NCBI GenBank assembly: GCA_045132175.1 | Contig: JBGURU010000042.1 | Coordinates: forward strand, 59,887-123,886 | DNA length: 64,000 nt | Source: Elusimicrobiaceae bacterium | GTDB taxonomy: Bacteria > Elusimicrobiota > Elusimicrobia > Elusimicrobiales > Elusimicrobiaceae | Direction of reading: 5' to 3' | In this document: positions 25,572 through 26,107 of the stretch, in pieces | Layout: each line of letters opens with the position of its first letter | Position numbering within the stretch: the first letter of the stretch is position 1 | Made by a program: the position numbers and the translations under genes | The notes under the pieces: generated by a model | Database searches by the model: none | What the model was told of the DNA's origin: nothing | What the model saw: only the letters and a program-made list of their open reading frames with translations

Positions 25572-26107
25572 TTTAACCGACAATTTGGGTACACGCCCAA
25601 TCTTCATCTCCAAAAGATTTACCCATATTTTTACATATTTTTTTACCTTCATCACTACTCATATAAGGCATACAAATTATTTTTTCCTTTGCTACTGGCA
25701 GTATCGCAATAATCATCACCATCTGGCTGGCCCATAATTATCTCAAATAAATTCTTATAACGGCACCGAACAGAACCATCATCTCCTAAATTTATATCAC
25801 AAAACCAATAATTATTATGACATACTTGGTTATCTCCGCAATTATCTTCTTCTTCATTTTTCCAATCGGCAGGCCAATTCGCTCCCAGCATAGAACCATC
25901 AGGCCAATCATAATCTTCTGTCAAATAACTACCATGCCTTAGTTTATATTCGGCTAATCCATCATACCAACGGCGCATAAGCGGCAAAATACTTGCAACC
26001 CTTGCTTTCGTGACGGCCATTTGATATTGCGGCAAAGCAATACCTGCCAAAATACCGATAATAAGTACAACTACTAACATTTCAATTAAAGTAAAACCCT
26101 TTTTCAT
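25572..26107 (-). pseudogene. Prepilin-type pilin gene interrupted by a +1 frameshift in an A6 run (plus-strand T6 at 25671-25676)
   Basis: Frame 1 (26107 to 25655) ends ...DYCDTASSKGKNNLYALYE*. Removing one A gives ...GKIICMPYMSSDEGKKICKNMGKSFGDEDWACTQIVG*, which aligns with paralog 52644 (...GKIICSPYTNDGEKICKSLGKPSGTDNGRQCTQIGG*). Confidence 0.75.

Follow-up and report, generated by a model that had tools for sequence, protein, structure and literature searches.

Promoter-spacer switches are known in several bacteria. They include the poly-A tract between the -35 and -10 hexamers of the Mycoplasma hyorhinis vlp genes and the poly-G/C tracts in the porA and opc promoters of Neisseria. An expanded family of PilE-like proteins has reportedly been found in Elusimicrobium minutum by Herlemann et al. 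in 2009. Homopolymers also act as contingency loci within coding sequences, such as the poly-A run of Mycoplasma fermentans p78 and the poly-G/C runs in surface-protein and methyltransferase genes of Neisseria and Helicobacter (PMC3711429). In a survey of prokaryotic frame transitions, 7 nt was the minimum homopolymer length for phase-variation calls, and the lower bound for slippage-prone homopolymers was placed at 7-8 nt (PMC3711429). Transcriptional slippage sites are runs of at least 8 nt, while true programmed shifts are expected on conserved heptamers (PMC3711429).

The locus described here belongs to an uncultured rumen bacterium of the Elusimicrobiaceae, whose genome is available as a metagenome bin of 54 contigs and is thus a consensus sequence. 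In LpxI it is closest to Elusimicrobiaceae bins recovered from rumen samples and other samples of herbivore guts. The stretch of 64,000 nucleotides that was analysed is referred to below as the window. On its minus strand, at 25573-26107, lies a type IV pilin-like gene that would comprise 177 codons if intact and is split here by a single additional A. Its 5' piece, which has 150 codons, starts with the ATG at 26107, begins MKKGFTLIEMLVVV..., ends ...SSKGKNNLYALYE and stops at 25655-25657. The next frame (25573-25679, minus strand, with its stop at 25573-25575) holds an out-of-frame remnant of the C-terminal coding region, ...IICMPYMSSDEGKKICKNMGKSFGDEDWACTQIVG, and encodes a C-terminus typical of the pilin family. 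The frameshift site is an A6 run at 25680-25685 (coding strand GGA AAA AAT, T6 on the plus strand). The junction in the window reads GG-AAAAAA-TAATTTGT on the coding strand, with the codons AGC AAA GGA AAA AAT AAT TTG. A terminator-like hairpin with a T run (25482-25517, minus strand; one site found against 0.2 expected) is placed beyond the point where the full-length ORF ends.

The frameshift had been the central claim of the original prediction, and it is real: the ORF that opens with the ATG at 26107 ends at 25655, and the adjacent frame carries the C-terminus of the family. Two coordinates given there needed correction, the T6 run having been placed nine bases away, at 25671-25676, and the gene end one base away, at 25572. 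It had also been proposed that a run of five A would give GKIIC, as in the paralog at 52644. The alignment bears this out, since one A fewer restores the family frame. All alleles other than those of the window and of one further contig, L013, read GGA AAA ATA ATT TGT at the junction, which encodes GKIIC. The paralog at 52644-53177 is the closest one within the window (83% DNA identity) and encodes the same residues as GGC AAA ATA ATT TGT, with a run of only four A. The length of the run therefore depends on the synonymous third base of the glycine codon, which is GGA here and GGC in the paralog.

The encoded protein is a putative type IV pilin-like protein with a class III signal peptide, an assignment based on its sequence and a predicted structure. 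The 5' piece matches PF07963 (N_methyl) with 32.7 bits against a cut-off of 21.2, and the prepilin motif is present, with the leader MKKG|, Gly-1, Phe+1 and Glu+5, followed by a hydrophobic helix. For modelling, the broken protein was read through once, via a four-letter step at GGAA, and folded using AF2 with an alignment of 67 homologs. The resulting model has a mean pLDDT of 92 and a pTM of 0.82. It consists of a helix (residues 7-58), a beta-sheet of at least five strands, a strand at 143-147, a helix at 152-161 and two short strands, and thus shows the lollipop fold, in which an alpha-1 helix of about 50 residues packs on an antiparallel beta-sheet. The best PDB matches of the model are pili of N. 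gonorrhoeae (probability 1.00, E 1.3e-3) and N. meningitidis (0.98, 5.5e-3), with low TM values to the Neisseria PilE filaments (0.32-0.38). In the model, the C-terminal remnant corresponds to the 143-147 strand, the 152-161 helix and both short strands, and it contains three cysteines (Cys145, Cys158, Cys171). C158 is present in all 67 homologs, and C145 in nearly all of them. The genome also encodes one prepilin peptidase (Peptidase_A24), four T2SSE ATPases and two secretins, all above cut-off.

The family is large, with about 140 pilin-like genes in a genome of 1.37 Mb, and only two of these are visibly broken. The second broken paralog lies outside the window (G000:C54:5593-6129). It carries an in-frame CAA to TAA change at the invariant LPQY, and the rest of its ORF is intact. 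Many contig ends (C3, C5, C8, C9, C16, C17, C31, C47 and others) lie within the promoter or the 5' module that the pilin genes share. The fragmentation of the assembly is due mainly to the pilin family, whose copy number may be underestimated because contigs often end in these elements.

Intact alleles of the split gene are present in other metagenomes. A search of a protein collection with the read-through sequence gave a cluster at 90% identity containing 11 sequences, with intact alleles on about 20 contigs. The read-through protein is matched letter for letter by an intact ORF of 177 amino acids on five ENA metagenome contigs, and near-identical intact alleles occur on about 15 further contigs. 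The only frameshifted members of the cluster are the two pieces from the window and one Logan contig (L013, run SRR25030105). Ten of the intact contigs were read at the DNA level, while the remainder of the roughly 20 were judged from called proteins. The run is A5 in all ten other contigs read as DNA, and A6 occurs only in the window and L013. Where the contigs carry enough flanking sequence, the gene order is that of the window: lpxD/lpxC-lpxA-lpxI-pilin, followed by a gene of 189/194 amino acids, a gene of 512 amino acids and a GGDEF/EAL gene.

In four contigs the 534-nt coding sequence is identical to that of the window except for the extra A, and the flanking genes of the same contigs differ from the window by 0.2-14.6%. 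The identity of these four alleles despite their diverged flanks indicates that the lesion is very young. The 103-nt downstream spacer shows no substitutions either. L013 also carries A6 and matches the window at every position over 2,677 nt, so that a second assembler, starting from raw reads, supports the extra base; both A6 contigs represent one strain, however, and may share a study or even reads. Across 6.5 kb, the window and the related contig L014 differ by no other coding indel, and the long genes of the window all have open frames, which indicates that the assembly is not generally prone to homopolymer errors. Most likely, the A6 run is no artefact but a very recent, derived state that is confined to a single strain. 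A scan of JGI metagenomes for the A5/A6 junction gave no match.

In other species of the genus, the ortholog search matched only the conserved 5' module and lpxI. In six other species (loci L005-L012) there is no pilin gene after lpxI, and the neighbouring gene varies by species. Comparison at the species level is consequently uninformative about the A run, and the pilin at the post-lpxI position is a species-level insertion. Comparison with orthologs had been put forward as a way of deciding the status of the gene. It did yield intact A5 relatives, while further degenerative mutations in relatives were not found.

The promoter of the broken copy is of the type shared by the pilin genes and lies on the minus strand. 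It consists of a -35-like hexamer TTGACT (26175-26180), a T15 tract (26156-26170) within a spacer of 20 nt, and a deviant -10 hexamer TAAATT (26149-26154) found in this assembly only; its full arrangement is TTGACT-TCTG-T15-C-TAAATT. Both the T15 tract and the singular -10 had been pointed out beforehand, and both are borne out. The tract is found at the position given above, and TAAATT occurs in one of the 86 promoters of this type genome-wide. In the nine other alleles that cover the site, the -10 hexamer is always TATAAT. The T tract of these alleles is T14 in seven contigs, T15 in one and T17 in one. Six of the seven T14 alleles read TTGACT-TCTG-T14-C-TATAAT, and in the seventh an A replaces the C. 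Relative to this common promoter, the window has a tract longer by one T and lacks one T within TATAAT, so the difference is length-neutral. No second assembly covers the -10, as Logan contigs break at the T tract; the one from SRR25030090 ends exactly there. The TAAATT change is probably real but is treated as unconfirmed, because it directly follows a long homopolymer and is seen in a single assembly. If it is real, the gene carries two inactivating hits and no other change, which fits either selection relaxed by the first hit or selection for silencing. A scan for canonical sigma-70 promoters did not call the pilin promoter, because of its 20-nt spacer and deviant -10.

Downstream of the -10, the 5' UTR contains a conserved hairpin (26119-26144, minus strand) formed by TATACAAT, a 10-nt loop and ATTGTATA, and a Shine-Dalgarno sequence AGGAG (26113-26117, minus strand) follows directly. 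A hairpin before the Shine-Dalgarno sequence is also present in the 5' UTRs of about 70 paralogs. As read from the sequences, its arms appear to co-vary among paralogs (TATACAAT/ATTGTATA, ATACGG/CCGTAT, ACAAG/CTTGT). The hairpin may serve in mRNA stabilisation or translation control.

The T tract is a property of the family rather than of the broken gene. All 86 A/T runs of at least 10 nt in the genome lie in a promoter layout of the type TTGAC(A/T)...TAnAAT, and nearly all promoters of this type precede pilin-like genes. Apart from one interrupted T10, the tracts are T12-T17, most often of 14-15 nt, and the distribution is otherwise almost empty between 10 and 12. The -10 hexamers of the 86 promoters are TATAAT (63), TACAAT (13), TAAAAT (5), TAGAAT (3), TATGAT (1) and TAAATT (1). 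The spacers measure 18-22 nt, mostly 19-20. The spacer of a canonical promoter is 17 nt, and promoters of the T-tract type escape a standard scan because their spacers are longer than this. Within the window, T tracts are found at 747-760, 11170-11183, 26156-26170, 33978-33992 and 53227-53240. Among 81 genomes of the order, the pattern gave 79 matches in this genome, 30 in one congener and at most three in each of the other 79. A search for tract polymorphism at more loci showed T15 in both strains read for the paralog at 33475 and returned no record of the exact product of the 52644 paralog. The family-wide occurrence of a homopolymer between the two hexamers supports the promoter T tract as a candidate slippage switch; at the broken locus its length varies between strains. 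The coding A run is not thereby a switch. The pilin genes without a T-tract promoter (for example, upstream of 15703 and 9102) are preceded by one of two hairpin types: a terminator-like ACGGCTG...CAGCCGTTTTTT, or a GC-rich CCCCTCCGCC...GGGGCGGGG followed by AAGGAGAAA.

Variation among the intact alleles (L018-L023) is sparse, with five nonsynonymous differences and one synonymous, numbers that are small. The change S150R arose twice, through AGT to AGA and AGT to AGG, and three of the five amino-acid changes lie in the C-terminal part that the frameshift removes. This pattern makes diversifying selection on the C-terminal surface possible. Divergence between the window (22573-29107) and the related contigs (L014-L023) is mosaic: 0-0.4% in the pilin coding sequence, 10% in lpxC and 2.4-5.3% in lpxI. 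In the gene of 189 amino acids (24899-25468), it reaches 14.6% between strains. Such mosaicism points to frequent recombination, with a pilin allele that appears common to diverged backgrounds. The excess of amino-acid changes, the convergent S150R and the identity across diverged backgrounds indicate that the gene is not decaying species-wide. Together they suggest a functional gene that is exchanged between strains and possibly under diversifying selection.

The best explanation, held here with considerable confidence, is that a type IV pilin-like gene which is functional elsewhere has recently lost its function in the strain of the window; this reading also covers the possibility that the loss was selected. 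The position of the terminator-like hairpin behind the complete ORF and the pilus machinery genes in the genome also count in its favour. The addition of a single A to a short A5 run would be an ordinary replication indel at a weak hotspot. It would shift the frame after Lys-142 and bring in a stop nine codons later. The product of 150 residues would keep the prepilin leader and the long N-terminal helix. Judging from the model, it would lack the last beta-strand, the C-terminal helix and three cysteines, and would be unable to form a normal, folded pilin head. The damaged -10 would probably reduce transcription. With a truncated product and a damaged -10, the gene would therefore be dead or dying in the strain of the window. 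In a family of about 140 members, its loss would represent a single step of birth-and-death turnover. The second paralog was broken by a plain nonsense mutation, and only two of the roughly 140 genes are broken, which argues for ordinary pseudogene formation in a family otherwise kept intact. The label of pseudogene, one of three options offered by the original prediction, is therefore supported for the broken copy itself. It does not extend to a gene decayed across relatives, because the lesion is fresh and strain-specific and the other alleles that were found have A5, TATAAT and no decay.

The closest competitor to a real lesion is an artefact, in which the gene of the strain is in truth intact with A5, and errors in the consensus account for the extra A and perhaps for the odd -10. 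The nature of the data lends this some weight, as the bin comprises 54 contigs that often break at pilin promoters, and a single assembly covers the -10, where a length-neutral deviation directly after T15 is of a kind that miscalls behind a homopolymer could produce. However, A6 is reproduced with full identity in an independently assembled Logan contig, and short-read consensus errors are rare at runs of 5-6 nt. The open long genes and the lack of other coding indels relative to relatives in 6.5 kb point the same way. An error of sequencing or assembly, which had been the second option on offer, is accordingly unlikely. A different question is whether loss of the gene was favoured in the host, for example as an escape from an interaction of the pilin with a host, phage or predator receptor. 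Selected silencing would explain why an otherwise unchanged gene took two hits, one in the coding sequence and one in the -10. These would be independent lesions within 480 nt, with zero substitutions in the coding sequence and none in the 103-nt spacer. The excess of amino-acid changes and the convergent S150R in the removed C-terminal part also hint at a target of selection. The numbers are tiny, however, at five nonsynonymous to one synonymous change. A second hit would be neutral once the first had inactivated the gene, and one of the two hits is possibly an artefact. Selected silencing is thus a doubtful addition, and it would refine the best explanation, in which it is contained, rather than constitute a separate mechanism.

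The third option had been a translational phase switch at the coding run. In its reversible form, the A5/A6 run and the promoter T tract would toggle the pilin by slipped-strand mispairing, and the sampled strain would be in the OFF state. The change is indeed of one unit in a mononucleotide run, in a surface-protein gene from a large and variable family; the rest of the gene is undamaged, as expected of an OFF variant, and the promoter tract is long enough to slip and varies between strains (T14/T15/T17). Nevertheless, the coding run, with A5 in intact alleles and A6 here, is shorter than the bound of 7-8 nt for slippage-prone tracts (PMC3711429). Runs of equal length number about 14,000 in the genome (10,090 A5/T5 and 4,005 A6/T6), and 521 of them lie in pilin coding sequences (376 A5/T5 and 145 A6/T6). 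The A4 run in the nearest paralog shows that the tract is not maintained. Across populations, about 20 contigs are intact according to called proteins, ten of them with A5 by DNA, and one strain has A6, which is the pattern of a single mutational event. Moreover, the second broken paralog arose by a nonsense mutation and not by slippage. Reversible phase variation at this run is consequently unlikely. Recoding, in which programmed +1 frameshifting or transcriptional slippage would yield full-length pilin from the A6 template, is extremely improbable. On AAA-A, a tRNA-Lys bound to AAA is able to shift its pairing into the +1 frame, a Shine-Dalgarno-like AAGGA lies just upstream of the run, and the downstream frame is fully intact. 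Against this, programmed shifts are conserved, whereas all orthologous alleles and paralogs are in frame here, and on this ground programmed frameshifting was rejected. The run of 6 nt compares with the at least 8 nt typical of transcriptional realignment and with the conserved heptamers of frameshift sites (PMC3711429), and no stimulatory element was identified. The original prediction had also envisaged two independent slippage switches on one gene. The half concerning the coding run finds no support, while the promoter T tract stands as a candidate slippage tract, although one shared by the whole family. There is little to recommend a two-layer contingency system, in which family members would be switched by slippage at both the promoter T tract and short coding A runs, and its probability is judged slight, a shade below even that of reversible phase variation at this gene. 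If it were true, the rumen Elusimicrobiaceae population would carry a shifting pilin repertoire.

Taken alone, the frameshift is an ordinary event that produced one fresh pseudogene, and it has little importance in itself. For annotation, the gene should be marked as frameshifted in this strain. The main use of the lesion is as a marker. Strains whose neighbouring genes diverge by as much as 15% share an identical copy of the gene, and nearly all of its few allele differences are amino-acid changes. Pilin genes may accordingly move or sweep through the population and be under selection. The noteworthy context is the surrounding family, all of whose promoters of this type contain a T12-T17 tract, and this tract is a more interesting lead than the frameshift.

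Compared with the described systems, the gene resembles the type IV pilins represented by Neisseria PilE in its prepilin leader, its predicted long N-terminal helix with a beta-sheet head, its cysteines near the C-terminus and the presence of machinery genes in the genome. It differs in a head domain of weak similarity, and the pilin here is a predicted one, known from genes and a model. As in E. minutum with its PilE-like family, the family is an expanded one. The promoters resemble the switches of the vlp, porA and opc type in that T12-T17 tracts lie between -35-like and -10-like hexamers at 86 promoters, with a length that is strain-variable at the broken locus. Unlike in those systems, the spacers are 18-22 nt, the tract is family-wide and leaves the frameshift unexplained, and the tract is a candidate switch. 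Coding-homopolymer contingency loci also have a mononucleotide run in a surface-protein gene, in which a change of one unit turns the ORF off. The run at this locus, however, measures 5-6 nt, is not conserved in paralogs and has the shifted length in one strain. The locus is in these respects close to the frameshift pseudogenes of surface-protein families, in which an indel in a short homopolymer leads to a premature stop in one strain while intact alleles persist elsewhere; here, too, another member of the family is broken, in that case by a nonsense codon. It differs from them in that the lesion is very young, with zero substitutions, is paired with a promoter lesion and occurs in an unusually large family.
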